NCBI GenBank assembly: GCA_949300365.1
Contig: CASGEC010000003.1
Location: 53,585 to 117,584 of the forward strand
Length of the DNA stretch: 64,000 bases
Source of the DNA: an uncultured Bacillota bacterium
GTDB taxonomy: Bacteria; Bacillota_I; Bacilli_A; RFN20; CAG-288
Direction of reading: 5' to 3'
The notes under the pieces are model-generated. The model was not told the origin of the DNA. It saw only the letters and a program-made list of their open reading frames with translations, and searched no databases. The position numbers were made by a program, and so were the translations under genes. How positions within the stretch are numbered: position 1 is the stretch's first letter; every line of letters begins with the position of its first letter. Shown here piece by piece: positions 15,496 through 57,207 of this stretch.

Positions 15496-16536
15496 ATGGT
15501 TAAATATGTAATCCAAAGAGTGGTCCTGGCCTTTATAGCCTTGTTCATCATCCTTTCCTTGACCTTTATTCTCATGAAAACCTTGCCAATGGAAGTTGGT
15601 GGCATGACCCCCGAAGCAAAGCTGACATTCCTCATGAATGAGTACAACAAAGGCTATCTCATCATGAGTACCTCCTTAGACCCGGCTTTAGGTAACCCTA
15701 TGTCATCGGCAACATTAATGGGAAGCACGACCACCTACTATTTCTGGCAGAAACCCATCATGGAGCAATATGGCAAATGGGTTGTCGATGTCTTTACCAA
15801 GTGGGATTGGGGAACCTCCTACGTGATCGAAGTCAACAAGCCTTGCTTCGATGTCATCCTCAACGGCCTTCCCGCAACAATTTCCGTCAATGCCGTTTCC
15901 GTCATCATCGCCGTTCCGGTCGGTATCCTTCTTGGAATCTGGGCTGCCCTTAAAAAGGACAAGCCTACAGACACCGCCATCTCGACGATCATCATGATCT
16001 TGATTTCCGTTCCTTCCTTCGTCCTTATTACATTCCTCATCATGATTTTGGGATACAACCTGAAGTTGCTTCCGACGGAATGGCCAAAAAGTTACTATCC
16101 GATGAACCAAAAGGTCTTGGGATTCATCATCCCTGTCATCGCCTTGTCCTTGGGATCCATTTGTGGATACTGCCGCTTCACAAGAGCCGAACTCTGCGAT
16201 GTTCTTTCTTCCGACTATCTGCTTCTGGCGCGAACCAAGGGTCTTACCAAGAGACAGGCCGTCATGAGACATGCCTTGCGCAACGCCATGGTTCCTATCC
16301 TTCCTTCCATTCTTGCCGAAATCATCGGCCTTCTCTCTGGATCGATGATTGTCGAGTCTATCTACAACATTCCCGGAATCGGCTCCATCTTCATCAATGC
16401 CCTGAATAAGAAGGACTACAACCTCTTGATGGTCGATATGGCGGTCTTCACGACAATCGGCCTTCTTGCCGGCATTGTCCTTGATCTCTCCTATGGATTC
16501 CTTGATCCTCGGATCAGAATGGGGGCCAAGAAATGA
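15496..16536 (+). CDS. oppB: Oligopeptide ABC permease
   Basis: EAA loop ARTKGL..HALRNA; C-terminal LDPRIR; GGAGG RBS before ATG 15496. Confidence 0.92.
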   Translation: MVKYVIQRVVLAFIALFIILSLTFILMKTLPMEVGGMTPEAKLTFLMNEYNKGYLIMSTSLDPALGNPMSSATLMGSTTTYYFWQKPIMEQYGKWVVDVFTKWDWGTSYVIEVNKPCFDVILNGLPATISVNAVSVIIAVPVGILLGIWAALKKDKPTDTAISTIIMILISVPSFVLITFLIMILGYNLKLLPTEWPKSYYPMNQKVLGFIIPVIALSLGSICGYCRFTRAELCDVLSSDYLLLARTKGLTKRQAVMRHALRNAMVPILPSILAEIIGLLSGSMIVESIYNIPGIGSIFINALNKKDYNLLMVDMAVFTTIGLLAGIVLDLSYGFLDPRIRMGAKK

Positions 16537-18413
16537 CAAACGATAAAGAACTCTTCGTCTATAAGGACAGCTCACATCATGAGCACAGCATCGCCCTGAA
16601 GGAGGATGCCTTCACTTTCCAGCACCAAAGCAAGAACATCAAGGATGTCTCCTTCAAGGGAAAGCCGACGACATTCCTTCGCGATTGCTTCAGACGTTTC
16701 TGCAAGAGCCGGGCTTCCATCACGGCAAGTATCATCTTGGGATTCCTCATCCTGCTTGCCATCATCCTTCCTTTTGCCCTTCCCTATGATGTCACGGGAG
16801 GAACGACTTCCGGAATGGAATTCCTTCCCCCGAAGCTCTTCCCGACAGGAACCGGTTTTTGGGATGGCACCAAGTCCTATAAGGACATCATCTTCGACAA
16901 GGATACGAATCTTCCCCAAGGCGATTTCGATGAATCCTCCATTGTCAAGGAATCCATCAAGACCTACCCGGGTACGATCGACAACACGCCGAACAAGTTC
17001 GCAACCGGAGGCTACATCCGTATCGCCTCTTCTGGAACTTCCGGCGACTATGTCTGGTCGGACAAGACATTCACCCTTTCCGACACTACGAACCTGACTC
17101 TCACCTATGAAGTCCAGCCGCAGATCATGGAAAACTACTTGCCGGTCCCCTACTACATCTCCGTTGCGGCAGGTGAAAACGAATATTTCGTCGTCAAGAA
17201 CTCTCGGCAGTATGGTGAACAGACAGTCGATGTCGGAAGCTTCCTCAAGGAACAGGGTGTCACCTCCTTGGAAAGCGCCAGAATCCGTGTTGGCATCAAT
17301 GGTATCGGCCAGGAGGAGATGATCGGTGTCTTCTTAAAGAGCCTCGTCCTCAAAAACGGGACGACGACAATGACTGATGTCTCCATGATCGATGCCAACA
17401 AAGCCCTCTTGGACAAGACATGGAAGTATTCCTCCGGTGGTCTCTCCGGCCTTGCCGGTGCCACGATCACCTATTGTTCCTTCACCTATAATCCGTATCA
17501 GAAAGCCTACGGCAATTACACCTTTGTCTATAGCAAAAACGATATTCAGGACATGATTGACCAAGGGCTGTGCGAATATGACTTTGCTGTCGGTGAGTCT
17601 TCTTTCAAGGCCTTGACGGATACGTGTCCTATCATATCCGTCGACAAGCAAAGCGAACGAACGGCCGCTGGTATCACCGTCATCGAAATCACGGCAACCG
17701 TCAGTCGTTACAAGCAAAAAGGCTTCGCCAACATGCCCTACCACATCTTCGGAACCGATTCCCAGGGCCGTGACATGCTGAAATATGTCTTCGAGGGCCT
17801 TCGAAACTCCTTGGGTCTTGCCGTCGTCATCTCCGCCATCTGCTTCCTCTGCGGCTTAATCTGGGGTGCCATCGAAGGTTACTTCGGTGGAATGGTCGAT
17901 ATGACGATGGAAAGAATCGTCGATGTCCTTGCCAATATTCCTTCGATTATTCTGATTACGATCTGCGTCCTGCACCTCGGCCAGACCTTCTCCGTCTTCA
18001 TGCTTGCCATGTGCATGACGGGCTGGATCGGTTCGGCAGGTATCACCAGAACCCAATTCTACCGATTCAAGCGAAGGGAATACGTCTTGGCATCCCGATC
18101 CTTGGGTGCCTCGGACACAAGACTCATCGTCAACCACATTCTCCCCAATGCCATGGGTACGATCGTCACCTCTTCCGTTCTGATGATTCCGTCCGTCATC
18201 TTCACCGAAGCGACCATCGCCTACTTGGGTATCGGCCTTGCGGGTATGTCCTCGTTGGGTGTCATTCTCAACAATAACCAGAATTTCATCGGAAGCAACC
18301 AATACCTATTGATCTTCCCTTCCCTCGTCCTTGCCATCATGCTGATCTGCTTCAACCTCTTCGGAAACGGCCTCCGCGATGCCCTCAACCCGTCCCTGAA
18401 AGGAAGTGAATGA
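16533..18413 (+). CDS. oppC: Oligopeptide ABC permease with large extracytoplasmic insertion
   Basis: FGTDSQGRD, EYVLASRSLGAS, HILPN, GLRDALNP; long insert after TM1. Confidence 0.92.
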   Translation: MTNDKELFVYKDSSHHEHSIALKEDAFTFQHQSKNIKDVSFKGKPTTFLRDCFRRFCKSRASITASIILGFLILLAIILPFALPYDVTGGTTSGMEFLPPKLFPTGTGFWDGTKSYKDIIFDKDTNLPQGDFDESSIVKESIKTYPGTIDNTPNKFATGGYIRIASSGTSGDYVWSDKTFTLSDTTNLTLTYEVQPQIMENYLPVPYYISVAAGENEYFVVKNSRQYGEQTVDVGSFLKEQGVTSLESARIRVGINGIGQEEMIGVFLKSLVLKNGTTTMTDVSMIDANKALLDKTWKYSSGGLSGLAGATITYCSFTYNPYQKAYGNYTFVYSKNDIQDMIDQGLCEYDFAVGESSFKALTDTCPIISVDKQSERTAAGITVIEITATVSRYKQKGFANMPYHIFGTDSQGRDMLKYVFEGLRNSLGLAVVISAICFLCGLIWGAIEGYFGGMVDMTMERIVDVLANIPSIILITICVLHLGQTFSVFMLAMCMTGWIGSAGITRTQFYRFKRREYVLASRSLGASDTRLIVNHILPNAMGTIVTSSVLMIPSVIFTEATIAYLGIGLAGMSSLGVILNNNQNFIGSNQYLLIFPSLVLAIMLICFNLFGNGLRDALNPSLKGSE

Positions 18414-18414
18414 T

Positions 18415-20010
18415 ATGGCTATCGATCTCAAGAACTACAACCGCGTCGACTACAAGACAGCGGAGAAGATTCTCCAGGTCAAGGATCTTTCCATTTCCTT
18501 CAAGACAGATCATGGTATCGTCCATGCTGTCCGGGGTGTCTCCTTCGATCTTTACAAAGGCGAAACCCTTTGCCTGGTCGGCGAATCCGGCTGCGGAAAG
18601 TCCACTGTCTGCAAGGCCTTGATGGGTATCCTTTCCAACGAGGCCATCATCGATGGCGGCACTGCCCTCTACCAGGGCGAAGACCTGACGAAGATTTCCG
18701 AAGACGAGTTCCACCGTATCCGCGGAAACAAGATCGGCATGATCTTCCAGGACCCTCTTTCTTCTTTGAACCCCATCATGAAGGTCGGAAAGCAGATTGT
18801 CGAGACGACGATGATCAACCGCAATATCCTCAAGAAGAAGTACGAAGACCTGATTTCCAAGGAGCTCATCGCCTTCAAGAACGCCAAGACGAACTTCGTC
18901 CAAGGACGTGACAAGCTTTTGCTCATGCCGGAATTCTTCCTTGCCGACCAGAAGAAGCTCATCAACGACAACGTCTACCAGATGAAGAAGGAAGGCCGCA
19001 AGGCAAGGGAAATCGCTTCCTACGAAAAGGAAGCCACCAAGGCTGCCAAGGCCGAATATGAGCGCCAGAAGAAGGAAAACAAAGGCAAGATCGAAGAGCT
19101 CAAGAAGGAATACAAAGCCAAGAAGCCCGGTCTTCAGCAAGCGCTCAAGGTTCGGGAAAAGGAAGCCAAGAAAGAACTTGCCGTCTACAAGAAGAAGCTG
19201 AAGAAGGACTACCATGACAGTCTCAAGGCAGTCAATGAAAAGCTCCGTTCCTGCCATTCCGCAGAGGAAAGGGAAAAGCTTCTCAAGGAAAAGGAACAGG
19301 CCAAGGAAAACTACATCCAGTCCACCCGCGTCACCCGTGCCCAGGCCAAGAGGATGGCCCTCAAGGTCATGGAAGAGGTCGGCATCAGCCAGCCGAAGGC
19401 CCGTATGAAGCAATACCCCTTCGAGTTCTCCGGCGGCATGCGGCAGAGAATCGTCATCGCCATCGCCCTGACCGCCAATCCGGAAGTCCTCATCTGCGAC
19501 GAGCCGACGACCGCCTTGGATGTCACGATCCAGGCCCAGATCCTCGAGCTCATCAACAAGCTGAAGAAGGAAAGAAACATGTCCATCATCTTCATCACCC
19601 ACGATCTTGGTGTCGTTGCCAACATGGCCGATAGAGTCGCCGTCATGTATGCCGGCAAGATCGTCGAGATCGGAACCTCCTTCGAAGTCTTCCTCGATCC
19701 CAAGCACCCCTACACATGGGCCCTTCTCTCCTCCATCCCCGACATCAATTCCAAGGAGAAGCTCGAGGCGATTCCCGGCACGCCGCCAAACCTCATCAAT
19801 CCTCCCAAGGGCGATGCCTTTGCCGACAGAAACCACTACGCCCTCTCGATCGACTATGAGGCCGAGCCGCCGCTTTACAAGCTGAGCGAAACCCACTATG
19901 CCGCGACGTGGCTCCTCCACGAGAAAGCACCGAAAGTCGAACCGCCCAAGATTGTCCAAGAGCGTATCCGCAAGTCGATAGAAAGCGAGGCCGAACATGA
20001 GCGCAGATGA
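18415..20010 (+). CDS. oppD: Oligopeptide ABC ATPase with K/E-rich insertion
   Basis: GESGCGKS, YPFEFSGGMRQR, DEPTTALD, HPYT, GDAFA; ORF opens at GTG 18406. Confidence 0.93.
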   Translation: MAIDLKNYNRVDYKTAEKILQVKDLSISFKTDHGIVHAVRGVSFDLYKGETLCLVGESGCGKSTVCKALMGILSNEAIIDGGTALYQGEDLTKISEDEFHRIRGNKIGMIFQDPLSSLNPIMKVGKQIVETTMINRNILKKKYEDLISKELIAFKNAKTNFVQGRDKLLLMPEFFLADQKKLINDNVYQMKKEGRKAREIASYEKEATKAAKAEYERQKKENKGKIEELKKEYKAKKPGLQQALKVREKEAKKELAVYKKKLKKDYHDSLKAVNEKLRSCHSAEEREKLLKEKEQAKENYIQSTRVTRAQAKRMALKVMEEVGISQPKARMKQYPFEFSGGMRQRIVIAIALTANPEVLICDEPTTALDVTIQAQILELINKLKKERNMSIIFITHDLGVVANMADRVAVMYAGKIVEIGTSFEVFLDPKHPYTWALLSSIPDINSKEKLEAIPGTPPNLINPPKGDAFADRNHYALSIDYEAEPPLYKLSETHYAATWLLHEKAPKVEPPKIVQERIRKSIESEAEHERR

Positions 20011-21511
20011 AAGAAACAGCATCGCCCCTGAGGAAAAAGCCCTCCAAGACATCAATTCCACCCCTCTTGCTTCTGCCAGCGGGTCTTTGAGAGTCGAAAA
20101 TCGCAAGGCTGCCGAAGAGGAGGCCCTCCACGATTTCACAGAGGAAGAAATCGAAATGCCGGAGCTCAAGAAGAAGGTCAAGACAAAGGCGGAATACCTG
20201 AAGCAGAAGATCATCCTTTCCGTCAACCATCTCAAGGTCTTCTTCCCGATGGGAAAAGGACCCAAGAAGTTCTACCTCAAGGCCGTCCATGACATCTCCT
20301 TCCAAATCCACCAAGGCGAAAGCTTTGGCCTCGTCGGCGAATCCGGTTGCGGAAAGTCCACGACCGGAAGAAGTATCCTCAGGCTCAACCCCATCACCTC
20401 CGGATCCATCTACTACAAAGGCGTGCGAATCGCCGGCGGAACGCGTTGGAACGAAAAGGAAATCAAGTGGTCGAAGATCAAGATCGAAAAGGAAATCCGG
20501 AAAATCCAGAAGCTGGCTACCCTGGAGGAACTCTTCGAGGAAGACAAGAAGATCTTCTATACCCCTTCCGGCGAGGAAAAGAGCCTTCCGGAAGCCAAGG
20601 AAAAACGCGTTCAGTTCCTTCGCGAGAGAATCCAGCGTGTCCACGACACGCAAAAGGCGAAGATCAAGCAGATCAAGTACGACAACCGCCACGTCGACAA
20701 GAAACTGATGCGTCAGATCCAGATGATCTTCCAGGACCCGATCGATTCCTTGGATCCGAGGATGACCGTCGAGGACATCATTCAGGAAGGCTTGAAGATC
20801 CAGGGCTTCCACAATAGACGCCAAAACCATGAGAAGACCGTCAAGGTCCTCGAGGAAGTCGGCCTCATCGAAGACTACTGCTCCCGTTACCCCCATGAAT
20901 TCTCCGGCGGCCAGAGACAAAGAATCGGTATCGCCAGAGCGCTCATCATGAATCCGGAGCTTCTCATCTGCGACGAACCGATTTCCGCTTTGGACGTCTC
21001 CATCCGTGCCCAGATCATCAACCTCCTCAACGACCTCAAGGAGAAGAGGCACCTCTCCATTCTCTTCATCGCCCACGATCTGTCGGTCGTCAAGTACTTC
21101 TGCGACGAGATCGCGGTCATGTACTTCGGTGACCTCGTCGAGAAAGCCTCCTCCGATGAGCTCTTCCGCCATCCTCTCCATCCCTATACGAAATCCCTCC
21201 TTTCCGCCATCCCGAAGCCTGATCCGTTCTCCGAAAGAAGAAGGGACCGTATCCACTACAACCCTGCCTTGGAGCATGACTATTCCAAGGAAAAGCCGAC
21301 CTTCCAGGAAATCGTTCCCGGCCACTGGGTCTTGGCCAACTCCGAGGAAATCAAGCGCTACAAGGAAGAGATGCGCCGTGAAGACGAAATCCGGAAATAC
21401 CACGACAATCCGCTCTACAAGGCCCTGACCGACAACATCTTCAACGAAGAAGAAGCCTACGAAGAAGAGATGCAGCTCTTCGCGAGCGAAAAGCCCGTCC
21501 TGGCCGAATAG
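19997..21511 (+). CDS. oppF: Oligopeptide ABC ATPase
   Basis: GESGCGKS, YPHEFSGGQRQR, DEPISALD, HPYT. Confidence 0.93.
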   Translation: MSADERNSIAPEEKALQDINSTPLASASGSLRVENRKAAEEEALHDFTEEEIEMPELKKKVKTKAEYLKQKIILSVNHLKVFFPMGKGPKKFYLKAVHDISFQIHQGESFGLVGESGCGKSTTGRSILRLNPITSGSIYYKGVRIAGGTRWNEKEIKWSKIKIEKEIRKIQKLATLEELFEEDKKIFYTPSGEEKSLPEAKEKRVQFLRERIQRVHDTQKAKIKQIKYDNRHVDKKLMRQIQMIFQDPIDSLDPRMTVEDIIQEGLKIQGFHNRRQNHEKTVKVLEEVGLIEDYCSRYPHEFSGGQRQRIGIARALIMNPELLICDEPISALDVSIRAQIINLLNDLKEKRHLSILFIAHDLSVVKYFCDEIAVMYFGDLVEKASSDELFRHPLHPYTKSLLSAIPKPDPFSERRRDRIHYNPALEHDYSKEKPTFQEIVPGHWVLANSEEIKRYKEEMRREDEIRKYHDNPLYKALTDNIFNEEEAYEEEMQLFASEKPVLAE

Positions 21512-22593: not shown

Positions 22594-23763
22594 TTACTCT
22601 TCATCCTTCTTTTTGAAGACCTGTCGATACACGTCATAGACATGTGTCTTTTTGGCGTTCTCGCTTCCGACCTGGGAATAGGTTTCCTGGATTTCTTCTG
22701 GTGTGGCAGTGAAGAGGTCGACAGGCTTGACGTTGATTTCAAGAAGTCCCCAATGCCCCTTTCCGGCACGGCAGCCATGATCCTGGGGATAGCGATTGAT
22801 CTTATATGTCCAGGAGGTGTAGGACCATCCCATTTTGTCAAAGAAAGCAAAGGTCCTCTCCCAATCCCTGTCCTTGCCCCAGGCATTCCACTCGCCGATA
22901 TAGACCGGAGCCTTGTATCCCATCAGATGATGCAGTGCCTTGTAGAAGCGAAGGCATGTCCTTTGGGAGAAGGGTGTCAGGTTGTAGATATGGTATTCAT
23001 AGCAGATGTTTTCCCATCCGTACTTCCTGAAGTCGGCGCCGTGGTTAGGAAAGGAGAAGCATTCGACGAAGATCATATGATCGGGATCGATCCTCCGGAC
23101 GGCCTTGTAGAGCTCATCATAGAAATCGAAGCAGATCTTCCCACCATAGCGATGCTTCTTTCTTCTGGGCTCATTGAGAAGGTCATAGCCGCAGACGATC
23201 GTCCTCTCCTTGAAGTGCTGGGCGATCTGTTCCCAGAGGTGGATGGTCTTTCGCCTGTTTTCCTTGTTGCCGTAAAGGTTGAACCGGCTATCGTCCCCGG
23301 AGTGATGGTCCATGTTCTGGGAACCGATGGCGCCATGGAGGTCGAGGACGACATAGAGATCGTATTTCTCGGCCATGTCCAAGGCCCAGTCGAGCTTGTC
23401 AAAGCCCCCAAAGCGGACTTTCTCCCCGTCATCGGTGAGATTGTAGACGGAGAAGTTGATCCGGATGGCGTTCAATCCCAGGTCATGGACACGCCTGAAG
23501 TCCTCTTCCTTGATGAAGTTGTCGATATAGACGGCTTCCAAAGAGCGGATGGACTCCTTGGGGATGTTGGGATTAAGAAGCATCGCCTCAAGACCCCGTC
23601 TTTGGGTATACCTTCCCGTCTGGAATGACGGAAGGCAGGATGTCGCCATCCAGAACTCCTGGACGAACCAGTCCCCGAAGTTGACGCCCTTGAGGACAAG
23701 CTTTCTTCCTTCGCCGTCATAGAGGCTTTCGCCGATGCTGTGGACATATCCTTTTGGTCTCAT
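22594..23763 (-). CDS. Glycoside hydrolase family 5, cytoplasmic
   Basis: GVNFGDW, LDLHG, DLLNEP (acid/base), HIY, YIGEW (nucleophile), WTYK; no signal peptide; ATG 23763 after GAGGTG. Confidence 0.88.
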   Translation of the reverse strand: MRPKGYVHSIGESLYDGEGRKLVLKGVNFGDWFVQEFWMATSCLPSFQTGRYTQRRGLEAMLLNPNIPKESIRSLEAVYIDNFIKEEDFRRVHDLGLNAIRINFSVYNLTDDGEKVRFGGFDKLDWALDMAEKYDLYVVLDLHGAIGSQNMDHHSGDDSRFNLYGNKENRRKTIHLWEQIAQHFKERTIVCGYDLLNEPRRKKHRYGGKICFDFYDELYKAVRRIDPDHMIFVECFSFPNHGADFRKYGWENICYEYHIYNLTPFSQRTCLRFYKALHHLMGYKAPVYIGEWNAWGKDRDWERTFAFFDKMGWSYTSWTYKINRYPQDHGCRAGKGHWGLLEINVKPVDLFTATPEEIQETYSQVGSENAKKTHVYDVYRQVFKKKDEE

Positions 23764-23825
23764 TTCTGTCACCTCAATATATATAGGATAACGGATAAAA
23801 TTCCTCGGAAGAAAGACATTTCCAT

Positions 23826-23851
23826 AAAAGGGATGCGGTTTCCCGCATCCC
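23826..23851 (-). terminator. Intrinsic terminator of the GH3-NCS2-lipoprotein operon
   Basis: Minus strand GGGATGCGG-GAAA-CCGCATCCC followed by TTTT. Confidence 0.75.
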
Positions 23852-23861
23852 AGGCTGCTTT

Positions 23862-24647
23862 TTAGAATGGTTGGAAGCCACCGCCTATGCTCTTGGTGAC
23901 TTCGACGACAACGGCATCCCTTTGGGTATAGCCTTCGACGCCGTTTCCCTGGACGCTGACGCTGTACTTGTCGTCGGTTGTGATGGTCGTGACGTCCTTG
24001 AGGTCTGCAGCCTTGAGGTTAAGTGCTCCGGCCAAGGCGTGGTCGTTTTGGTAGACGATGGTATTGGTCGCGGTGTTGGTCAGGATGAGGGTGTAGTCGA
24101 CGGTGATCGTGTCGGTCGCAGTGATGGTGATGTCGATCGTGACTTCCTTTTCTTCCTCTCCGGTAGCCGGATCATCGGCGGCTGTTGCCATCGGGCCAGG
24201 ACCAGGACCCCCGCCGGCGCTGTTGGGATCGTTGAACTTGGCCTCGACTTCCGGGCTTCCAAGCATGGTCGACTTTCCTTCGACCTGTGTCTGGTTGGTC
24301 TTATAGCGCGGGGCGATGGCCTTGACGACGGCGCGATAGTCTCCGGGAAGGAATTCATAGTCGAGCGTTCCGGAGTAGTCCGTGTTGCTTTCCGTGGCAC
24401 GGATCATGCCCGAGGAAGCGACGGCATGGGAATCCAAGGTGCCATCGACGAACTGATAGACCTTCAGGGAATAGAAGGTGGCGTTGGGGCTTCCGGTAAA
24501 GGAATAGGCCGCGGTATTGAAATCGAAAGTGAGGTTTGTCGGGGCATCCAGAGTCGGATTGGACTTCTGTGTTTCGCTGTTGTTGCAGGAGACGAGCATT
24601 CCGGAGAAGAGTATGGGGAGAAGCAATGCAAGGATACGTTTCTTCAT
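23862..24647 (-). CDS. Uncharacterised lipoprotein, two beta-rich (Fn3/Ig-like) modules
   Basis: Lipobox LVSC; LDAPTNL start typical of Fn3-like modules; Gly/Pro linker. Confidence 0.75.
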   Translation of the reverse strand: MKKRILALLLPILFSGMLVSCNNSETQKSNPTLDAPTNLTFDFNTAAYSFTGSPNATFYSLKVYQFVDGTLDSHAVASSGMIRATESNTDYSGTLDYEFLPGDYRAVVKAIAPRYKTNQTQVEGKSTMLGSPEVEAKFNDPNSAGGGPGPGPMATAADDPATGEEEKEVTIDITITATDTITVDYTLILTNTATNTIVYQNDHALAGALNLKAADLKDVTTITTDDKYSVSVQGNGVEGYTQRDAVVVEVTKSIGGGFQPF

Positions 24648-24666
24648 GATTTTTCTCCTTCTTCGA

Positions 24667-26208
24667 TCAGATGACGGCTAGGACGAGGTAGAGGAGAGAG
24701 ACTGCCGGAGCGGCAATGGTCGTGGGATTGAAGCTTGTCCACTGCCTTCTGGCAAGGCGGATGACCGCATCGAAGATAAGACCGAGTCCAATACCCAGGG
24801 CGAAGTCGCCAAGGATGACCATGCCAACAAGAGTGGCGGCAAAGGGAATGAGCTCATCGATGTTGTGGACATCGACCTTTCTGAATCCGCGGAGCATGTC
24901 CAAGGCAGCAAGGGCGACCATCAAATCGGCAAAGGCAAAGACATCCTGGGCATAGGCCTGAAGCTTGACTTCGCTCTCGCTGATCCACATACCGACACCA
25001 TGGGTCTGGGTGGCAGTCAGGGCGAAGACAGCCCAAGTGAAGAGGCAGACGAAGAAGCCGATAGCGGCAATGACGGAACTGAGCCCGGTCTTGGCCTCGT
25101 TGTCGCTGCTGACCGCAGAGGATGCGGAGACGGTGCTGATCGGAGCACCCAGGATTGGGGCGACGACGTTGATGGCGGAGGTGATGAGGAAGACGCGCCT
25201 TTCGTTGTCGACGATTATCTCGTCAGTGAGATAGTCGCCGGCTTCGGCGACGGCATTGAGGTTGCTGACATTGGTATAGAGGGAGAGGACGAGGAAGACG
25301 ATGACGCCCTGGATGAAGACAAGGGCCGGGTTTCCGCCGTTTTCGATCAGGGCCGAGAAGTCAAATCCCTTGGTGAAGCACATGCCCCAGTCGACGGAGG
25401 AGAAGCCCAGGGAGATGTTGTAGGGGAGAGCGCCATCGGTGGCGATGATGAGGTTGAGACGTTCGTAGACGACGATGGTCGCCGTGGATCCGCCGATGAA
25501 GCTGGCCATGTAGAAGAGGATGCCACCGGCCCACATGAGGCCAAGCAGCGTCCCGAAGAGGCGGAAGGTCGCCTTGCGGACATGGAAGATCTTCATGCAG
25601 ACAAAGGCGATCGAGGCAAGGACCATGAGGAGGAAGTAGAAGCCCTGGAGATCCATGGAGCCGACATTGGAGATGACGTTGTCGGAGATGAAGCCGGCAT
25701 GGCTGAGGGCCTGGATCATCGTGAAGAGACAGACGCCGATAGGAAGGGCTTTGCGGATGGAAAGGGGAAGGATTGTCGTCAGCTTCTTTCCCAAAGGCGA
25801 GATGACGACAGCCAAGGACAGAAGGGCGGAGAAGAAGGTGATGGTCATCATGTTGGCATAGGTCAATCCGGCATTGGCGGTGATCATCGAGACAAGGGCG
25901 GTGGAAAGGGAGAGGTTGCAGCACTGGACGATCGGACGGTTGAAGAGGATGCCAAGAAGGAGGGTACCGATGAAACTCACCAGGGCGACGGCAAGATAGC
26001 TTCCGGCATAGCTTCCATAGGCCTCGCCGATGATCTGGGTATTCATCAGGAAGGCGGCGACGGCGATCAGGAAGCTTCCGATTCCGGCTCCGATCTCGCT
26101 GCGGATGGTTGATCCGCGCTCATAGACGTGGAAGAAGGAGCCGATGGCCTTGGAAACCTTGCTGGGTTCCCGCGTCTTTACGGCAATGGCGTTTTCGGCT
26201 GCGGACAT
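24667..26208 (-). CDS. Divergent NCS2/AzgA-like permease
   Basis: GSTIRSEIGAG, LP..IRKA...G, AKTGLSSV, ELIP motifs; about 13 TMs. Confidence 0.8.
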   Translation of the reverse strand: MSAAENAIAVKTREPSKVSKAIGSFFHVYERGSTIRSEIGAGIGSFLIAVAAFLMNTQIIGEAYGSYAGSYLAVALVSFIGTLLLGILFNRPIVQCCNLSLSTALVSMITANAGLTYANMMTITFFSALLSLAVVISPLGKKLTTILPLSIRKALPIGVCLFTMIQALSHAGFISDNVISNVGSMDLQGFYFLLMVLASIAFVCMKIFHVRKATFRLFGTLLGLMWAGGILFYMASFIGGSTATIVVYERLNLIIATDGALPYNISLGFSSVDWGMCFTKGFDFSALIENGGNPALVFIQGVIVFLVLSLYTNVSNLNAVAEAGDYLTDEIIVDNERRVFLITSAINVVAPILGAPISTVSASSAVSSDNEAKTGLSSVIAAIGFFVCLFTWAVFALTATQTHGVGMWISESEVKLQAYAQDVFAFADLMVALAALDMLRGFRKVDVHNIDELIPFAATLVGMVILGDFALGIGLGLIFDAVIRLARRQWTSFNPTTIAAPAVSLLYLVLAVI

Positions 26209-26209
26209 G

Positions 26210-29200
26210 TTACTCTTCCTCCTTTCTCAAAGGGGTCGTCTCTTTTTCCTTGCGGACGATGGGAAGGACGATGAAGAAGACGGCAATCGCACCCATGCCG
26301 ACACCGAGGACGACGTTCAGGGCGATCTGGATGTTCCGCCAGGATTCATCGGGCACGGAGGCAATCTGGGCAGCGTGGCAGTTCTGGTAGAGCATGTGCT
26401 TCATGACGTTGCGGAGGAGATAGCGGCCATAGTTGGTCGTAGTGGCATCGCCTTCCTGCTCGAAGTAGGTCGTGATGGAAGAGCCGCCAAGCTGTCCCTC
26501 CGTGCCGCCGAAGAGACCGGCACCCGGCGTCAGGACCCACGGATAGGGGCCGACACCATCGGTGATAAGAAGGCCGTTGAAGCCCCACTCGCCGCGGACG
26601 ATGCCCTGATAGACACCTTCATGGGACCAGGAGATACCGACACGGTTGAGGGCACCCATGATACCGAGGGCGCCTTCGCCGGCGTGGAAGGTACCATCCG
26701 TCATGTCCTCGTTGGGGACGAAGATGTTCTGGGTGGCGATCTCATAGTCCTTCAGATAGATTTCCCTGGCAGCCTGTTCGGAGAGCCAGGTGATGTTTCC
26801 GTCACGGTTGGTATCGTTGTCGTTGAAGGCCATGTGCTTGATGAAGACGATGATGCCTTCGCTCTGCAGTCCGGCGACTTCCGCCGCACCGATCATGCCG
26901 CCGAGAAAACCGTCTTCGGAGAAGTATTCGAAGTTGCGGCCGCCATAGGGGGTCCTGTGGGTATTCATGGCCGGGGCATAGGCACCGCCGATACCGTTCT
27001 TCTTGGACTGGTGCGCATAGACCTGTCCCATCTTGTACATGAGGACGGGATTCCAGGTCGAGGCATTGACAACAGCGCTTGTGAACCACGTGGAAGCCGT
27101 ATAGGTGTTCTGTCCGTTTCCGCTCTCGCCCGGGCCATCGACGACGCTCATCCTCTCCTTGCCGACGCTTTCGACGGCAGGTGTCTGCCAACCAAGGCCA
27201 CCCTGGACGGCAATCTGTTCCTCAAGGGTCGTCTGGTCGACAAGGTAGGCCCAGATCTCGTTGTCGTAGCTTGCGGTCTTGAGGGCCGGGCAATTGACAT
27301 CAAGGGGCATCTCTGTCTCTTCCTGGGTGATGACGTACTGGCCGTATTCATCGATGAGGGGATCGCCGTTGGCATCGACCTCGAGGTAGTACTTGGCACC
27401 GTAGTCGATGACGTGCTCCTCGTTGACATCGTCGAAGAAGTAACGGTCGTCATCCTGGGTCAGTCCTTCCCAGTTCTCGCCGTCTGAATAGGCCTGATAG
27501 GAAGAACCGCCGATATACTTCTTGACGGTCTTCGTCACCTTCTCGCCGTGCTCATAGGTCTGATAGGTATAGTCGACGCTTTCAAGGGCCGGGCAGGCAA
27601 GGGCTTTTACGGCCTCATCCTTGAGGGCTTCGGTCTTGCAGTTGGATTCATGCGTCATGATGGTCTTCATGCCGGAAGCGAAATTGCTCCGGGAAAGATA
27701 GCCATCGAGCATGTTGCCATCGCCGGCATCGGCATCGCTCATGCGGACCTTGGCAACTTCATGGTCGTTTTCACGGGCGCCGACACCTTCCTCGTTGTAG
27801 TAAAGGGAGCTGCCAAGGCTTGCCTTGACCGGTTCGGTATAGTCCTCATGGGCATTCTTGCCGATGTGGAACTGATAGTCGCCCTGCTCAAGGACATAGC
27901 ATCCCATGCCGTAGTTATCAAAGGAAGCCAGGTCATCGGTATCGAAATTGATGGTGACATCCTCGCTCTGGCCGGCCTCAAGGACCTGTGTCTTGTCAAA
28001 GCCGATGAGGACCTTCGCCGACTTCTCAAGGCCGCGACCCTTGATACCGCAGTTGGAATCGGTATTGTAGGGGGCTTCCAGGTAGAGCTGGACGACTTCC
28101 TTGGCCGGTGTCTTTCCGGTATTGGTGACGCGGACGGTGATGGAATTGTCGCCATGGGCGTCAAGGGAGACATCGCTATTGATGACTTCCTGGGAAAAAG
28201 TCGTGTAGCTCAAGCCATAGCCGAAGGGATACTGGACGACTTCGTCGTATCCGGAAGCCGTGCCGTTCTTCCAGGCGTGGCTTGTGAAGTCGCTCGAATC
28301 GAAATAGCCCATCTTGTCGGCCGTTTCATAATAGCGGTAACCGACATAGATTCCTTCCTCATACTGGTAGTAGCCGAAGTTGGTGGACTTGTCATAGCCG
28401 GAAACGATCTCGTTGACGTTGGTGTACTTGTTGTCGTCGTTGTTGTAGAAGGAAGGCATCGTCGAGTGGTCATAGGCATAGGTATCGGCAAGCCTTCCGG
28501 AAGGAGCGACCTCGCCGGTCAACACCTGGGCAACGCCGACAAGTCCGGCCTCGCCCGGATGGCCAATCCACAAGCAGGCATCGACACCGTATTCTTCCTT
28601 CTCGATCTCGCCAAGTTCGACGGCAGCGGAGGAATTGATAAGGACGATCGTCTTCTTGTAATGCTCGTTGCAGAACTTGAGAAGGTCCTTCTCATCCTGG
28701 GAAAGCTGGAGATAGGTCGTGCCCGTGGAGGCTTTGCCATCGCCATCGTAGTCCATGACAGGGGAAGCACCTTCGGCACCCGAGCGGGCAAAGGTGACGA
28801 TGACAACGTCGTTATAGCCTTCATTTGCGATATCGGAGCTGTAGTGGTTGTCATAGACCGAGCGGGAGAATTCGCAGACTCTAAGGTATCCGCCCCAGTC
28901 GCCGCGGCCGTAGTTGTCCTTGTTGTTGACATAGTCGGAGCCCTTGAACGTCGCTTCCGTTCCATCACCAAGATGGCCGACGTATTCGCCGCTGGTATCG
29001 ACGTTTCTGGCACCGCCGACAGCCGTCTCGAGCCAGTTCCAGGCTTTCTCGTTGACATCGAGATACTTTTCCTTGGAGGCCGAGTCGCCATCGACTTTCG
29101 AGCCATCGAAGGCTTCCTTCATCGTATAGGTGTGTTCATCGTACTTACCGCCGGCCGATCCCGTACCGCCGTTGATGTAGTTGTAGGACTGGGCGCCGAG

Positions 29201-29494
29201 GATCGTGACCTTCTGTCCCTTGGCCAGAGGCAGGGCGTTGTTCTCGTTCCGGAGCAGGACGGCACCTTCGGACTCGATCTCACGGGTGATTTCGCGTCCC
29301 TCGGCCAGACACTCCTCGACAGAGTAGGCACCTTCTTCGCCACCTTCCGTACCCGAATTCGTCGACGTGGATCCGCCGAGGTAGTTGCTCAAGGTGTCTC
29401 CGTATTCCTCAAGAAGTACGTTCGAGCAAGCCACGACCAGACCCAGACCGACGAGAAGACGGGCACCCATCGCAATCTTTTTGGCTTTCCGCAT
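26210..29494 (-). CDS. Membrane-anchored GH3 beta-glycosidase (C-domain / Fn3 / N-domain order)
   Basis: EGAVLLRNEN, PSGRLADT, YVGYRYYET, YPFGYGLSYT, GRNFEYFSED, IKH, GEWGF..LITD (nucleophile); N- and C-terminal TMs. Confidence 0.92.
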   Translation of the reverse strand: MRKAKKIAMGARLLVGLGLVVACSNVLLEEYGDTLSNYLGGSTSTNSGTEGGEEGAYSVEECLAEGREITREIESEGAVLLRNENNALPLAKGQKVTILGAQSYNYINGGTGSAGGKYDEHTYTMKEAFDGSKVDGDSASKEKYLDVNEKAWNWLETAVGGARNVDTSGEYVGHLGDGTEATFKGSDYVNNKDNYGRGDWGGYLRVCEFSRSVYDNHYSSDIANEGYNDVVIVTFARSGAEGASPVMDYDGDGKASTGTTYLQLSQDEKDLLKFCNEHYKKTIVLINSSAAVELGEIEKEEYGVDACLWIGHPGEAGLVGVAQVLTGEVAPSGRLADTYAYDHSTMPSFYNNDDNKYTNVNEIVSGYDKSTNFGYYQYEEGIYVGYRYYETADKMGYFDSSDFTSHAWKNGTASGYDEVVQYPFGYGLSYTTFSQEVINSDVSLDAHGDNSITVRVTNTGKTPAKEVVQLYLEAPYNTDSNCGIKGRGLEKSAKVLIGFDKTQVLEAGQSEDVTINFDTDDLASFDNYGMGCYVLEQGDYQFHIGKNAHEDYTEPVKASLGSSLYYNEEGVGARENDHEVAKVRMSDADAGDGNMLDGYLSRSNFASGMKTIMTHESNCKTEALKDEAVKALACPALESVDYTYQTYEHGEKVTKTVKKYIGGSSYQAYSDGENWEGLTQDDDRYFFDDVNEEHVIDYGAKYYLEVDANGDPLIDEYGQYVITQEETEMPLDVNCPALKTASYDNEIWAYLVDQTTLEEQIAVQGGLGWQTPAVESVGKERMSVVDGPGESGNGQNTYTASTWFTSAVVNASTWNPVLMYKMGQVYAHQSKKNGIGGAYAPAMNTHRTPYGGRNFEYFSEDGFLGGMIGAAEVAGLQSEGIIVFIKHMAFNDNDTNRDGNITWLSEQAAREIYLKDYEIATQNIFVPNEDMTDGTFHAGEGALGIMGALNRVGISWSHEGVYQGIVRGEWGFNGLLITDGVGPYPWVLTPGAGLFGGTEGQLGGSSITTYFEQEGDATTTNYGRYLLRNVMKHMLYQNCHAAQIASVPDESWRNIQIALNVVLGVGMGAIAVFFIVLPIVRKEKETTPLRKEEE

Positions 29495-29571
29495 AGGGTT
29501 AACCTTGTTCCTTTCTTCCCTCGTTAGAAAGAGAGGGAAATTTCGTCAAAAGCGCTTTCGACATCACGTCC

Positions 29572-29599
29572 ATTCTAGGAAACGACACGCTTTTGGCAA
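29572..29599 (-). promoter_or_regulatory. Putative promoter of the GH3 operon
   Basis: Minus strand TTGCCA-16 bp-TAGAAT. Confidence 0.5.
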
Positions 29600-29604
29600 C
29601 GAAA

Positions 29605-29639
29605 CGGGAACAAGCGGTCAACAATCGGGAACAAGCGGT
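29605..29639. promoter_or_regulatory. 14-bp perfect direct repeat with 21-bp period, putative LytTR binding site
   Basis: CGGGAACAAGCGGT at 29605-29618 and 29626-29639, just upstream of the -35 and adjacent to a LytTR two-component system. Confidence 0.7.
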
Positions 29640-29702
29640 TTTTGAAGAAAGAAAGCCCTTACCCTCTTGAAAATGGCCCGGATTCTATCGTATACACATG
29701 GC

Positions 29703-31061
29703 ATGAGTTATTTTTCTTTCTTCGTCGAGCATTACGTCAACCTGTGCTATGGAGCGACTTTCGTCATCACGGAAATCGTGGCCTGCATCGCCATCTCCTT
29801 GGTCTTCAATTCCATCAATTTCCGCAATTGGAAAGACGATCTTGTCCTCCTTGCCGACATCGCCCTCACCTGGTTGGTCCAGTGCTTTGTTCTCTCCTGT
29901 CCGACGTTTGCCATCTTCACGGCCATCGGGCATCCGGAGTATGCCCAGTACACCCGTTTCTTCCTCTGGCACATCCTGGCCTTCCTCCATCTTCTTCCCT
30001 ATCTGAAGAAAGAAAGCCTTCCCCTTTTGATCACCTGCGCCATGGCTTCCTCGACCCTGGTCGTCATGGCAATCAGCTTCTCGGGGTCCTTGGGCTCCTT
30101 CATAACCTCATCCATCGGGGCGCCGAATTCCTTATTGGTGGATTGGACTTTGTATATCATCCTTTTTGGCCTTATCGCGCTCATTGTCCTCTTCAAGGTT
30201 TTTTCCCCGTTCAAATACCGCTATGTCCAAATCGCCCCGATTGTCGTCGTCAATATCGCCTTTGTCCTGACCAACATCGCTGCCGATATCATGGCCTGCG
30301 TTCCTTCCGAACCCGTTGCCGTCTTCCTGGTCATCTTTTCCTTGATCCTCATCGACATGCTCGTCTACGTCATCTTCTATCTGCTGGTCAAAAGCTACAA
30401 TCGGGTCCTCGACTTCCAGGTCCGGGCGATCAAGGCCGAGGGCGAAAAGGACCAGCTCTCCCTCTATGCTGCCCAGGCGGAGGAAATCCATGCCCTGCGC
30501 CACGACATGAAGAACCGGATCAACATCCTCGAGAACCTTTATGACAAAGGCGAATACGAGCAGATGCGTTCCTATCTTGAGGATCTCACCAAGGGCATCC
30601 ACGGGATCCTGGATACCATCGATTGCGGAAATCCCCTGGTCAGCTCGATCATCAACATGGAAATCGCCAAGGCCAAGGCAAAGAAGATAGCGATACAGCC
30701 TCATATCTCCATCCCCAAGACCCTGAGCCTGGATAGCCAGGACCTCTCCTCCTTCCTGACCAACGCCTTGGACAATGCCATCGAATACGAGGAAAGAAAC
30801 AACCTTTCCGAAGCCATAGACGTCTCGCTCTTCAAGGATGGGGACTATCTTTTCTATACGGTCAAAAACGGCTATCGTCCCCGAAAGGATGGCCTAAGCC
30901 TCCTCCATTCCGAAAAGAACGATAGGCGCAACCATGGATATGGCGTGAAGATCCTGAGGAACATCGCCTCGAAATACCAAGGTACCTGCAGCTTCGATGC
31001 CAAGCAGGATGTCTTTGTCTTCCAGGGCATGCTGAAACTGAAGACGGAGGAGGGCATATGA
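29703..31061 (+). CDS. AgrC/VirS-like GHKL sensor histidine kinase
   Basis: About 7 TMs, LRHDMKN H-box, NALDNAIE N-box, HGYG G-box; ORF opens at 29667, start uncertain. Confidence 0.9.
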   Translation: MSYFSFFVEHYVNLCYGATFVITEIVACIAISLVFNSINFRNWKDDLVLLADIALTWLVQCFVLSCPTFAIFTAIGHPEYAQYTRFFLWHILAFLHLLPYLKKESLPLLITCAMASSTLVVMAISFSGSLGSFITSSIGAPNSLLVDWTLYIILFGLIALIVLFKVFSPFKYRYVQIAPIVVVNIAFVLTNIAADIMACVPSEPVAVFLVIFSLILIDMLVYVIFYLLVKSYNRVLDFQVRAIKAEGEKDQLSLYAAQAEEIHALRHDMKNRINILENLYDKGEYEQMRSYLEDLTKGIHGILDTIDCGNPLVSSIINMEIAKAKAKKIAIQPHISIPKTLSLDSQDLSSFLTNALDNAIEYEERNNLSEAIDVSLFKDGDYLFYTVKNGYRPRKDGLSLLHSEKNDRRNHGYGVKILRNIASKYQGTCSFDAKQDVFVFQGMLKLKTEEGI

Positions 31062-31804
31062 GCACGATGGATTTTTCCCTGGCGATCGTCGATGACGATG
31101 CCAAGGACAGGAAGATGGTCTTCGAAAAGCTTGCCGATCTCTTCAAGACCAGGCAGAGGACAGTCCGCATTTCCTCCTTCCCCAACGCCGAAAGCTATCT
31201 CATCGCCCTGAATGCCGGCGATACCTTCGATCTGACTTTCCTGGATATCGAAATGCCCGGAATGGATGGCATCACCATGGCCAAGGAAATGCGGACAGCG
31301 GGAAGGAAGAACCGTATCGTCTATGTCTCCAATAGGGAAGACCTCGTCTTTGACTCCCTGGAGACAAAACCCTTCGGCTTTGTCCGCAAGAGCCACTTCG
31401 AAAGAGACAGCGACAAGGTCATCGATTCCTTTCTGGAAACGATCAAGGAAGAAGGAAAGTCCGTCTTCCTCCTTGTCTCTGAAGGAAGGCAGATCAACCT
31501 CTCTCTCGGGGAAATCATCTACGTCGAAAGCAAGGGCAAGAAACAGTACTTCCACGTCCTTCACCAGAAAGAGAGCCTTCCGACAAGCCGCACGATGAAG
31601 GACATCAAGGGCGAGCTTGAAGACAAAGGCTTTTTGGAATGCTACAAGGGAATCCTGGTCAACTTCCTTGCCATCAAGGTCATCGGCGAGGATTCCATCC
31701 AGCTGAAGAACGGTTCCATCCTCCCCTTGGCCCGGAGAAAGGCAAACGATTTTCGGAAGGAATACATGTATTTGATGCAGGATAGAATTCAGAACGTCTT
31801 TTGA
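31058..31804 (+). CDS. LytTR-family response regulator
   Basis: IVDDD, FLDIEMPGMDG receiver; IIYVES, F..CYKGILVN LytTR domain; 4-bp overlap with the kinase. Confidence 0.92.
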   Translation: MSTMDFSLAIVDDDAKDRKMVFEKLADLFKTRQRTVRISSFPNAESYLIALNAGDTFDLTFLDIEMPGMDGITMAKEMRTAGRKNRIVYVSNREDLVFDSLETKPFGFVRKSHFERDSDKVIDSFLETIKEEGKSVFLLVSEGRQINLSLGEIIYVESKGKKQYFHVLHQKESLPTSRTMKDIKGELEDKGFLECYKGILVNFLAIKVIGEDSIQLKNGSILPLARRKANDFRKEYMYLMQDRIQNVF

Positions 31805-32000
31805 TACTCTCTCTGCTGTTCCGTTTTCAATGATACATTAAAACTTGGTTCTTACTAAGCCTCTCTTTTTCATCTCTTCGCTTTTCCCCTAGCAAGGAAA
31901 GCGCTACGCTTTTTCGGACAAGGCCCTATAATCATTGCCATTGCCTTGGAAAAGGAATAACATACTCCATTTGGAATTTCCTTTCGATGGAGACAATCCT

Positions 32001-33302
32001 ATGATTGCAACTTATGTCATCAGCGCCATCACGATCGTCAGCATGACGCTGTCCTTCTTCCTCTTCCCGCATGTCACGATCCGGGGCAAGAAACTGGATA
32101 CCTATTGGATGGTGACTCTGGCCGGAGCCGTCCTCCTTCTTCTGACCCATATTTCGACGGATAGCGATATCCTCCACCTTTTCATCGAGAACAACAACAC
32201 GAACCCGCTCAAGATCATCGTCCTCTTCCTCTCCCTGACCTTCATTTCCAAGTTCCTGGATGCCGTCGGCCTTTTCGGCTTTCTGGCAACCCGGGTCGGA
32301 AGGATCGGAAACGGAAACCAGCTTGTCCTTTTCTCTGTCTTCTATCTCCTTGTCTCTGCCCTGACGATTGCGACCAACAACGATATCATCATTATCGTCA
32401 CGCCGATCATCATCTACTTTGCCAGGGCCTGCAAGGCCAATCCCATTCCCTACCTGGTGATGGTCTGCTTTGTCCTCAACACGCTTTCGACGACCTTCCT
32501 GACGACCAATGTTTCCAATCTCTATCTGGGATCCTTTTTCGGCATCACCTACTTCGACTATTTCCAGCATCTGACCCCTATCTCCCTGCTTTTGATGGTC
32601 CTTCTTTACCTCCTTCTGATCCTTGTCTTCCATAAGCAGCTTCTTGTCCGGATCAATCCGGAAGTGGAGAAGGAACCGATAAAGGACAGATTCCTTCTTG
32701 CCATCGGCCTTTTTGCCTTGGCCGGGACAACCCTCCTTCTGATCCTGAGCAATGTCATCGCAATCGAGATGTATCTCATCACCCTGGCCTTTGCCCTTTT
32801 CGACCTTCTTGTCGCCATCGCCTACTGCTTCTTGAAAAAGAAGGATAAGACCTACGTGACAAAGCCCTTGAAGTCCTTGCCCTATGAGTTCATCCCCTTC
32901 CTCACTTCCATGTTCGTCATCATTTCCGCACTCAACGAAACGCCGCTTCTCTCCCAGATCGGTGCCCTCTTCAACCAGATCGAATCCCCGGCTATGCAGA
33001 CATTCGCCTATGGTGTCACAAGCGCCCTCAGCGCCAACCTCGTCAACAACGTCCCGATGTCCCTTCTCTTCGGCGATATCCTGAATGCGGCAGGCACGAC
33101 CAATCTCGACAGCGTCTATGCCTGTATCCTGGCAAGCAACGTCTGCGCCTTGATCACGCCCTGCGGTGCCCTTTCCTCCCTCATGTTCATCCGCATCTGC
33201 AAGGAAAACGATGTTCCCTTCGGCTATGGCGCCTATCTGAAATACGCTCCCTTAGGCATCATCCTCCTTCTCTCCGGAATCGGCTTGATCCTGGCCTTCT
33301 AA
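32001..33302 (+). CDS. ArsB/NhaD/SLC13-family anion permease
   Basis: TNNDII, SNLYL, NLVNNVPMS, TPCGALS motifs; GGAGA RBS. Confidence 0.82.
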   Translation: MIATYVISAITIVSMTLSFFLFPHVTIRGKKLDTYWMVTLAGAVLLLLTHISTDSDILHLFIENNNTNPLKIIVLFLSLTFISKFLDAVGLFGFLATRVGRIGNGNQLVLFSVFYLLVSALTIATNNDIIIIVTPIIIYFARACKANPIPYLVMVCFVLNTLSTTFLTTNVSNLYLGSFFGITYFDYFQHLTPISLLLMVLLYLLLILVFHKQLLVRINPEVEKEPIKDRFLLAIGLFALAGTTLLLILSNVIAIEMYLITLAFALFDLLVAIAYCFLKKKDKTYVTKPLKSLPYEFIPFLTSMFVIISALNETPLLSQIGALFNQIESPAMQTFAYGVTSALSANLVNNVPMSLLFGDILNAAGTTNLDSVYACILASNVCALITPCGALSSLMFIRICKENDVPFGYGAYLKYAPLGIILLLSGIGLILAF

Positions 33303-57172: not shown

Positions 57173-57207
57173 GTCCTTTCTCCTTTCCGATTCCTTTCGG
57201 AATCCAA

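Follow-up and report, generated by a model that had tools for sequence, protein, structure and literature searches.

A predicted membrane-anchored GH3 glycosidase linked with an AzgA-like carrier and a lipoprotein in gut Bacillota

The locus and its GH3 enzyme

The DNA studied here is a stretch of 64,000 nucleotides from an uncultured Bacillota bacterium (assembly GCA_949300365.1, contig CASGEC010000003.1, positions 53,585 to 117,584; hereafter the window), in which genes for a glycoside hydrolase of family 3 (GH3), a permease related to the AzgA branch of the NCS2 carriers and a lipoprotein form one unit, a module that recurs in other genomes and whose parts are fused to each other in some of them. 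All three genes are on the minus strand: the GH3 gene at 26210..29494 (1094 residues, predicted as a permuted exo-beta-glycosidase), the permease gene at 24667..26208 (513 residues) and the lipoprotein gene at 23862..24647 (261 residues), separated by 1 bp (base 26209) and 19 bp (24648-24666), respectively. A terminator-like hairpin (23830..23851, minus strand; nine pairs, seven of them G-C, and a T-run) stands directly 3' of the lipoprotein stop and closes the three-gene unit. A histidine kinase gene (29667..31061, plus strand; 464 residues) and a response regulator gene with receiver and LytTR domains (31058..31804, plus strand) overlap by 4 bp and are divergent from the unit. In front of the GH3 gene there is a match to a sigma-70-like promoter (29572..29599, minus strand; TTGCCA, 16 nt, TAGAAT), which is a consensus match only, and a direct repeat of two 17-nt copies at 29602..29639, immediately upstream of the -35 element. 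The gene layout, strands, gaps, terminator, divergent pair and promoter repeat had been given in a preliminary description of this DNA, and the open reading frames (ORFs), Pfam matches, hairpin and repeat bear all of them out. In a search of sequencing runs, the locus was found in four DNA runs of one study and in no RNA run.

The GH3 protein matches GH3_C (PF01915, residues 79-386, 101.8 bits), the Fn3-like domain (PF14310, 466-547) and GH3_N (PF00933, 790-980, 51.6 bits), and this order of sandwich, Fn3-like domain and barrel is that of the permuted (ABS-FLD-ABB) subgroup. The permuted rumen enzyme GlyA1 (PDB 5K6L), which matches the window GH3 at E = 1.2e-56, has the same order and likewise a long linker before the barrel, according to the accessible text of its paper (PMC5104943). 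BrGH3A, as far as the available text goes, is another GH3 beta-glycosidase of permuted topology. The closest solved structures are beta-glucosidases, namely 8IDZ (1.5e-64) and Bgl3B of Thermotoga neapolitana (TnBgl3B, 2.1e-59). E241 of the window protein aligns with E458 of TnBgl3B, which we take to be the acid/base of that enzyme, and is predicted to have the same role. D979, the predicted nucleophile, aligns with D242 of TnBgl3B and with D709 of GlyA1, whose catalytic residues are given in the accessible text as Asp-709 for the nucleophile and Glu-143 for the acid/base (PMC5104943). Because both catalytic residues are kept, the enzyme appears catalytically intact and should be active, and equivalents of D979 and E241 are both present in the fused GH3-permease proteins described below. 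The NCBIfam equivalog models all stayed far below their cut-offs for the window GH3 (the best at 198.6 against 1300 bits), so that no specific activity can be assigned to it.

Hydropathy gives only two hydrophobic segments in the GH3 protein, residues 10-28 and 1061-1079, each flanked by basic residues, and none in the GH5 protein encoded beyond the hairpin, in agreement with the earlier description of a GH3 with transmembrane (TM) segments at both ends and a cytoplasmic GH5. The N-terminus is a signal or an anchor with a lipobox-like VVAC, and the C-terminal TM segment carries a tail of K, R and E residues. Both termini are kept in 19 orthologues; the lipobox Cys is found in the versions from Bacilli only, and those from Clostridia have a plain anchor. 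These features predict that the bulk of the GH3 is outside the cell, and together with the aligned D979 and E241 they are consistent with the external and intact enzyme that had been supposed. The accessible text of the GlyA1 paper does not contain the words 'transmembrane' or 'signal peptide' (PMC5104943), whereas the window GH3 is predicted to be anchored at both ends.

Linkage and natural fusions of the three genes

To compare loci we call the window's kind of module type A and a more distant kind type B. Among species-representative genomes the permease profile led to 17 loci and the GH3 protein to 19, and the 23 type-A assemblies comprise those of both searches and three more that were met in the type-B search. 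In each of the 23, the permease gene (40-93% identity) comes directly after that of the anchored GH3 (66-94% identity). Type B has a permease 24-30% identical to that of the window (30 loci), and a doubly anchored permuted GH3 (39-50% identical, 1018-1141 residues) is encoded within about 1.5 kb of it in 27 loci, the other three being contig-edge cases. The gene order in type B is GH3-lipoprotein-permease, or permease-GH3-lipoprotein in two loci of Christensenellaceae (L080 and L082). It is evident that GH3 and permease genes, which are neighbors in 50 of the 53 other assemblies, across two divergent types and three arrangements, recur together far beyond chance, though these counts come from metagenome-assembled genomes (MAGs), of which related ones are not independent. 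The neighbourhood search that had been set as a test of the linkage thus came out in its favor. In addition, the identities of GH3 and permease to the window proteins co-vary (Spearman 0.82 over 45 locus rows, which are non-independent and include two duplicates).

By their record titles, the hosts of the module belong to small-genome Bacilli of the same genus as the window and to several families within Clostridia, and a cultured carrier is Faecalicatena fissicatena KCTC 15010 (L086, type B). Seven of 36 genomes of the window's genus have the module. Of 24 genomes taken from elsewhere in the order, none had an orthologue, and 400 genomes drawn from the phylum gave no further one (E <= 1e-80); a search with the Bifidobacterium lemurum protein P0025 gave no locus, and no plasmid record encoding the permease was found. 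The G+C content of positions 24001-30000 of the window is 0.54-0.57, above that of the flanks (0.49-0.51), and this together with the patchy occurrence in the genus is consistent with acquisition by transfer.

Natural fusions connect all three proteins. GH3 and permease are encoded by a single ORF of 1609 residues in two MAGs (L044:857-5686 and L043:6707-11536), in which about 35 linker residues connect the C-terminal helix of the GH3 with the N-terminus of the carrier, a join that fits the predicted topology. A third such fusion, P0094 (1596 residues), shares 77% identity with these ORFs across 1610 columns but joins the two parts by another linker, so the fusion has persisted through divergence. 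Lipoprotein fusions were sought by profile in a representative library of 1.84 billion proteins, and the lipoprotein was found as a C-terminal extension of the permease in P0095 (E = 2.8e-69), P0098 (5.7e-13), P0205 and P0159. These fusions are the strongest evidence that GH3, permease and lipoprotein are one physical unit, and with the adjacency in other genomes and the three gene orders they support the earlier proposal that the three genes work as one. The coupling of GH3 and carrier, functional and physical, is the part of our interpretation in which we are highly confident. One 1139-residue chimera, P0110, joins GH3 residues 1-182 and 632-1087, permease residues 1-232 and a piece resembling a kinase; most likely it reflects a misassembly, or else decay of a fused copy, and it was set aside.

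The linkage also bears on the simplest alternative, that the permease is an ordinary importer of purines or nucleobases which merely lies beside a beta-glucosidase gene and has no functional tie with it. Relatives of the permease are named 'xanthine uracil permease' or 'AGZA family' in some sources, as would be expected for such an importer. The adjacency to GH3 in three gene orders speaks against it, the in-frame joining of the permease to GH3 and to the lipoprotein contradicts it, and a permease that is confined to seven of 36 genomes is not the general purine route of the genus.

The lipoprotein itself has an N-terminal signal, a lipobox with Cys21 and two beta-rich domains with a Gly/Pro linker between them. 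Cys21 is invariant in all 13 aligned homologues (LVSC, LAGC or LSGC), and the type-B homologues likewise carry a lipobox Cys. No relative was found in Pfam, NCBIfam or PDB; the family consists of 17 clusters, mostly unnamed in the sources. Its profile detects a homologue in 12 of 16 type-A loci scanned; with tblastn hits in L001 and L060 added, the lipoprotein was detected in 13 of the 23 type-A assemblies, and in 23 of the 30 type-B loci. Its membership in the unit is thus supported by the four fusions to the permease, and is weakened by detection in only this part of the type-A assemblies.

A second fusion of a transporter with a glycosidase is present in the same window, where an ORF of 1031 residues (8810-11905, minus strand) joins an MFS_1 carrier (40-396) with a complete GH2, comprising a sugar-binding domain (516-633) and weaker matches to the Ig-like domain (649-720) and TIM barrel (731-891). 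The full-length ORF occurs in G000 and in seven more genomes of this genus, both parts are also spanned by a ninth match, that in G003 (query 161-1026), and MFS_1 and GH2 are adjacent separate genes in at least ten genomes.

The AzgA-like carrier and its control

The 513-residue permease has no match in Pfam up to E = 10, PF00860 included, and none in NCBIfam, though precomputed PF00860 matches are carried by some of its relatives; the family forms 66 clusters at 90% identity, mostly unnamed in the sources. A search of PDB with the single sequence gave only AZG1, colinear, at E = 0.0016, and a profile of 26 family members gave AZG1 at 1.5e-27, AZG2 at 2.2e-19 and the SulP carrier SULTR4;1 at 5.9e-4. 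Thus, the NCS2 identity that had been claimed for the permease stands by profile, though not by Pfam, and by these comparisons the permease stems from the AzgA branch within NCS2 and is divergent. Its homology to AZG1 (8IRL) and AZG2 (9J12) is colinear over the whole length and includes the TM10 Ser, the TM1 Asn and the K/R-T-G-L motif. Hydropathy gives 11 strong segments in the window permease and an extra C-terminal one, the 15th, at 495-513; every full-length family member ends in such a segment after a basic loop. Since this segment is added to the standard NCS2 topology, which we assume here, the C-terminus is predicted to be outside the cell. Three conserved segments specific to the family are on predicted outer loops, and these and the 15th helix distinguish it from the AZG carriers.

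For a comparison of the binding pocket, 76 canonical representatives were aligned with 34 members of the family and 14 of type B. In AZG2 the purine is contacted by Tyr56, the main chain of Met138, Asp345, Phe396, which stacks on the ring, and Glu398, according to the accessible text of the structural report (PMC11992111). In the alignment, the TM1 Tyr is present in 73 of 76 canonical sequences and in 0 of 34 family members, which mostly have Cys or Ala; the TM3 Asn in 63 of 76 and 0 of 34 (Ser in 30); the first TM8 Asp in 46 of 76 and 0 of 34; the TM10 aromatic in 62 of 76 and 0 of 34 (Gly, Ser or Ala in 31); and the TM10 Glu in 74 of 76 and 7 of 34. On the other hand, the TM10 Ser is kept in 34 of 34 members, the TM1 Asn in 33 of 34, and the K/R-T-G-L motif is retained. 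By alignment, therefore, the carrier framework is retained and the purine-binding site is remodelled with small or hydroxyl residues, and this replacement of the purine contacts predicts a cargo other than a purine. The parts of the module belong to known families, as judged by homology, and the defining AzgA feature that the permease lacks is this set of contact residues, in line with the earlier idea of a repurposed carrier. For the permease as an ordinary purine importer the loss of these residues is a further difficulty, and together with the linkage it makes that explanation highly improbable.

The pocket and the kinase together raise a different possibility, that import of the product has been lost and that the AzgA-like protein serves as a membrane scaffold, as a co-sensor of substrate flux for the kinase or as an exporter. 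The kinase (GHKL type, HATPase_c_5, PF14501, 62.8 bits) has six or seven membrane segments within residues 1-240 and lacks a large outside domain, a kinase/LytTR pair is found with the module in at least 21 of the 23 type-A loci and 18 of the 30 type-B loci, and transporter co-sensors exist for other two-component systems; the pocket is heavily changed, and its carboxylates are lost in most family members. However, no kinase gene adjoins the module in two loci (L041 and L086), and the retained residues named above are hallmarks of elevator carriers, from which we argue that transport is retained. A role without import is accordingly rated as improbable.

The regulator has the receiver domain PF00072 (45 bits) and the LytTR domain PF04397 (45.3 bits). 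Upstream of the GH3 gene the two repeat copies occupy 29602-29618 and 29623-29639, 21 bp or about two helical turns apart from start to start, and abut the -35/-10 match (29599-29572). The repeat core CCRYTYR-(13-15 nt)-CCRYTYR has 19 matches in 323,752 bp (the window and 14 loci, both strands), and 13 of these stand upstream of GH3 at a distance of no more than 260 bp, spread over 11 of the 15 type-A loci. This position holds for a divergent or a downstream kinase/regulator pair alike. At least two kinase/regulator lineages occur with the module (regulator identity 33-48% in some loci and 21-27% in others). The core is present in 7 of 29 type-B loci, and the remaining loci have a more distant LytTR pair. 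This conservation suggests that the kinase/LytTR pair controls the GH3 operon through the repeat as its predicted operator, as had been proposed for the window. The pair resembles AgrC/AgrA-type systems and BtsS/BtsR in its polytopic HATPase_c_5 kinase, its receiver-LytTR regulator and its direct repeats 21 bp apart, and BtsR is the best NCBIfam match of the regulator (E = 4.3e-8, far under the cut-off of the model). BtsSR also induces a nutrient carrier. Unlike these systems, the module pair would regulate a glycosidase-carrier unit; a peptide-pheromone system was considered and dropped, as no candidate gene was seen beside the kinase pair, though no dedicated search was made.

Some further repeats and sensors were met around the module. 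Extra repeats are found downstream of the regulator gene in L043 (14913-14960) and L044 (9065-9112), before acyltransferase, TauE and MFS_2 genes, and a repeat copy stands in front of the kinase gene in L049 (4304-4331). These copies hint at a wider regulon or autoregulation; those in L043 and L044 were rejected as a clue to function, there being no informative gene downstream. In an Oscillospiraceae MAG, a 1057-residue protein encoded a few kb from the module (L048, 11804-14977, minus strand) has GH3_C, an Fn3-like domain and a C-terminal HATPase_c_5, and resembles a histidine kinase whose sensor part is GH3-like but has no barrel. A gene for an ArsB/CitMHS-type carrier (31935-33302, plus strand) comes after the regulator gene in the window, a position conserved in the nearest relative only; L047 and L071 have unrelated CitMHS carriers near the module.

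Cargo of the module and its possible mechanism

Neighboring genes give some insight into the cargo. The module has no conserved cytoplasmic enzyme, and the only recurrent neighbor is an orthologous cytoplasmic GH3 of classical domain order, found in 10 of 53 loci and also in L050. A GH16 adjoins L096, and GPH-type sugar carriers or sugar kinases are present in several loci. The GH5 of the window (22594..23772, minus strand; 392 residues, PF00150), most like exo-beta-1,3-glucanases, had been counted with the unit, but it is found only in the nearest relative (L001/L028), that is in 1 of 53 other loci, and is behind the terminator-like hairpin, so we regard it as an accessory neighbor outside the core. 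Mbeg1-like proteins (PF11187) adjoin the module in two lineages (L036 13315-14967 and L049 11716-13344), and one is also encoded in the window at 55832-57211 (minus strand).

The host genome is 1.44 Mb at 85% completeness, and in it no PTS EIIC (sugar phosphotransferase component), AIRS-domain (PurM/PurL-type) gene, PF00860 carrier, transpeptidase or Mur ligase was found. A role of the module in cell-wall recycling (NagZ-like) was rejected, with the GH3 predicted outside and no transpeptidase or Mur ligase in the host. The Opp permease and ATPases encoded in the window (16533-21511, plus strand) have large insertions, and their best models were built on Mycoplasma proteins. The host probably belongs to Bacilli that have a small genome and no cell wall, and it probably depends on purine salvage. 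The lack of AIRS-domain genes and of other PF00860 carriers would suit an ordinary purine importer; the host has, however, two binding proteins of the Bmp/PnrA type, a family named for nucleoside uptake, and so need not rely on the module carrier for purines.

The same tethered module could instead import an aglycone, namely a heterocycle, a vitamin or a small planar compound cleaved from a plant glycoside and salvaged by universal cytoplasmic enzymes. The carrier has its ancestry among carriers of nucleobases and cytokinins, the module lacks a conserved cytoplasmic enzyme as would suit a compound usable by any host, a sensor kinase wholly embedded in the membrane would suit an amphipathic ligand, the hosts, by record title, come from herbivore or omnivore guts and from rumen, and the purine-related gaps of the host noted above are compatible with it. 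On the other hand, the family has lost the side chains with which AZG2 binds the purine ring, the stacking aromatic in all 34 members; the recurrent neighbors are carbohydrate enzymes and not genes of salvage or ring catabolism, which leaves the heterocycle and vitamin glucosides offered as examples in the preliminary description without support; and the module stays the same in hosts that differ greatly in their biosynthetic capacity. An aglycone cargo is therefore possible but unlikely. The gene context, and a pocket without the stacking residue and most carboxylates, suggest that a carbohydrate is the more likely cargo than a heterocycle.

From these results we propose that the module is a self-contained cleave-and-capture nutrient unit of monoderm gut Bacillota. 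The exo-acting GH3 would be held at the outer face of the cytoplasmic membrane by its N-terminal anchor and C-terminal helix, and its cytoplasmic tail would lead into the cytoplasmic N-terminus of the AzgA-derived carrier, the two being coupled in translation over the 1-bp gap in the window and made as a single polypeptide in some genomes. Outside, the carrier C-terminus with its 15th helix would meet the two- or three-domain lipoprotein or be fused to it, so that enzyme, carrier and lipoprotein would most likely be one membrane complex; this complex and its topology are suggested by hydropathy, the positive-inside rule and the fusions. The product of the GH3 would be released beside the carrier mouth and may be taken up before competitors reach it. 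It would most likely be a carbohydrate, either a released sugar or a shortened beta-glycoside, whose degradation could be finished by the cytoplasmic GH3, or by the GH5 in the window, where these are present. The membrane-embedded kinase and the LytTR regulator would switch the operon on through the repeat of 21-bp spacing next to the -35 element.

Several facts weigh against this cleave-and-capture proposal. We know of no NCS2-fold carrier that moves a neutral sugar, and an exo-acting GH3 would also degrade disaccharides, a poor fit with uptake of a short glycoside. Only about one locus in five has the cytoplasmic GH3, the TM10 Glu is still present in 7 of 34 family members, and the want of a PF00860 permease and of AIRS-domain genes points to a nucleobase need in the host. 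Ten of the 23 type-A loci and seven of the 30 type-B loci gave no lipoprotein match, so that the lipoprotein is either non-obligatory or diverged beyond the profile used. Moreover, the type of kinase is best known for peptide sensing. Taking these points together, we consider that the evidence leans slightly towards the cleave-and-capture reading as a whole, carbohydrate cargo included, and that the preliminary interpretation as a whole is partly supported.

The proposed unit can be compared with known systems that bring a glycosidase and a carrier together. In the Sus-like utilisome of Bacteroidota, a surface glycosidase, a lipoprotein and a transporter act as a unit, and the products are kept from competitors; that complex is in the outer membrane and has the TonB-dependent SusC and SusD. 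The likeness to the module is in function only, whereas the module would work at the cytoplasmic membrane of monoderms with a secondary carrier of unrelated fold, an exo-acting GH3 and an orphan lipoprotein, and no SusC or SusD family was found in Pfam scans of the window and 16 loci. In heteromeric amino-acid transporters (4F2hc or rBAT with SLC7), a single-pass membrane protein whose ectodomain has a glycosidase fold is bound to a secondary carrier, but the ectodomain is GH13-like, inactive at least in 4F2hc, and serves trafficking, whereas the ectodomain of the module is a GH3 with both catalytic residues and the carrier families are unrelated. The module shares no families with either system. 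Its GH3 also differs from GlyA1 in being tied or fused to a carrier, with 66-94% conservation across classes. The locus had been regarded as undescribed, and a full-text search of the literature likewise yielded no published account of an AzgA-like carrier with a GH3 tied to it. A bolder form of the proposal is a stoichiometric complex of GH3, carrier and lipoprotein, a monoderm counterpart of the utilisome, in which the AzgA-fold carrier takes a carbohydrate or glycoside handed over by the tethered GH3. We put this forward tentatively, with less than even confidence; if true, it would give the AzgA branch its first cargo other than nucleobases and hormones, and the fusions would be the first of a hydrolase with a carrier of such kind.

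Finally, if cleave-and-capture is true, gut bacteria that are Gram-positive or wall-less would have a way of keeping to themselves what the cleavage of glycans or glycosides outside the cell yields, by tying a hydrolase to an importer in place of an outer-membrane Sus machine. The substrate range of the NCS2/AzgA carriers would be widened, and permease and lipoprotein families that are mostly unnamed would gain a role. The natural single-chain enzyme-carrier proteins would suit structural work on the hand-over of substrate. Moreover, the module seems to move between classes and, being patchy in the genus and richer in G+C than its flanks, may mark a specific dietary niche.

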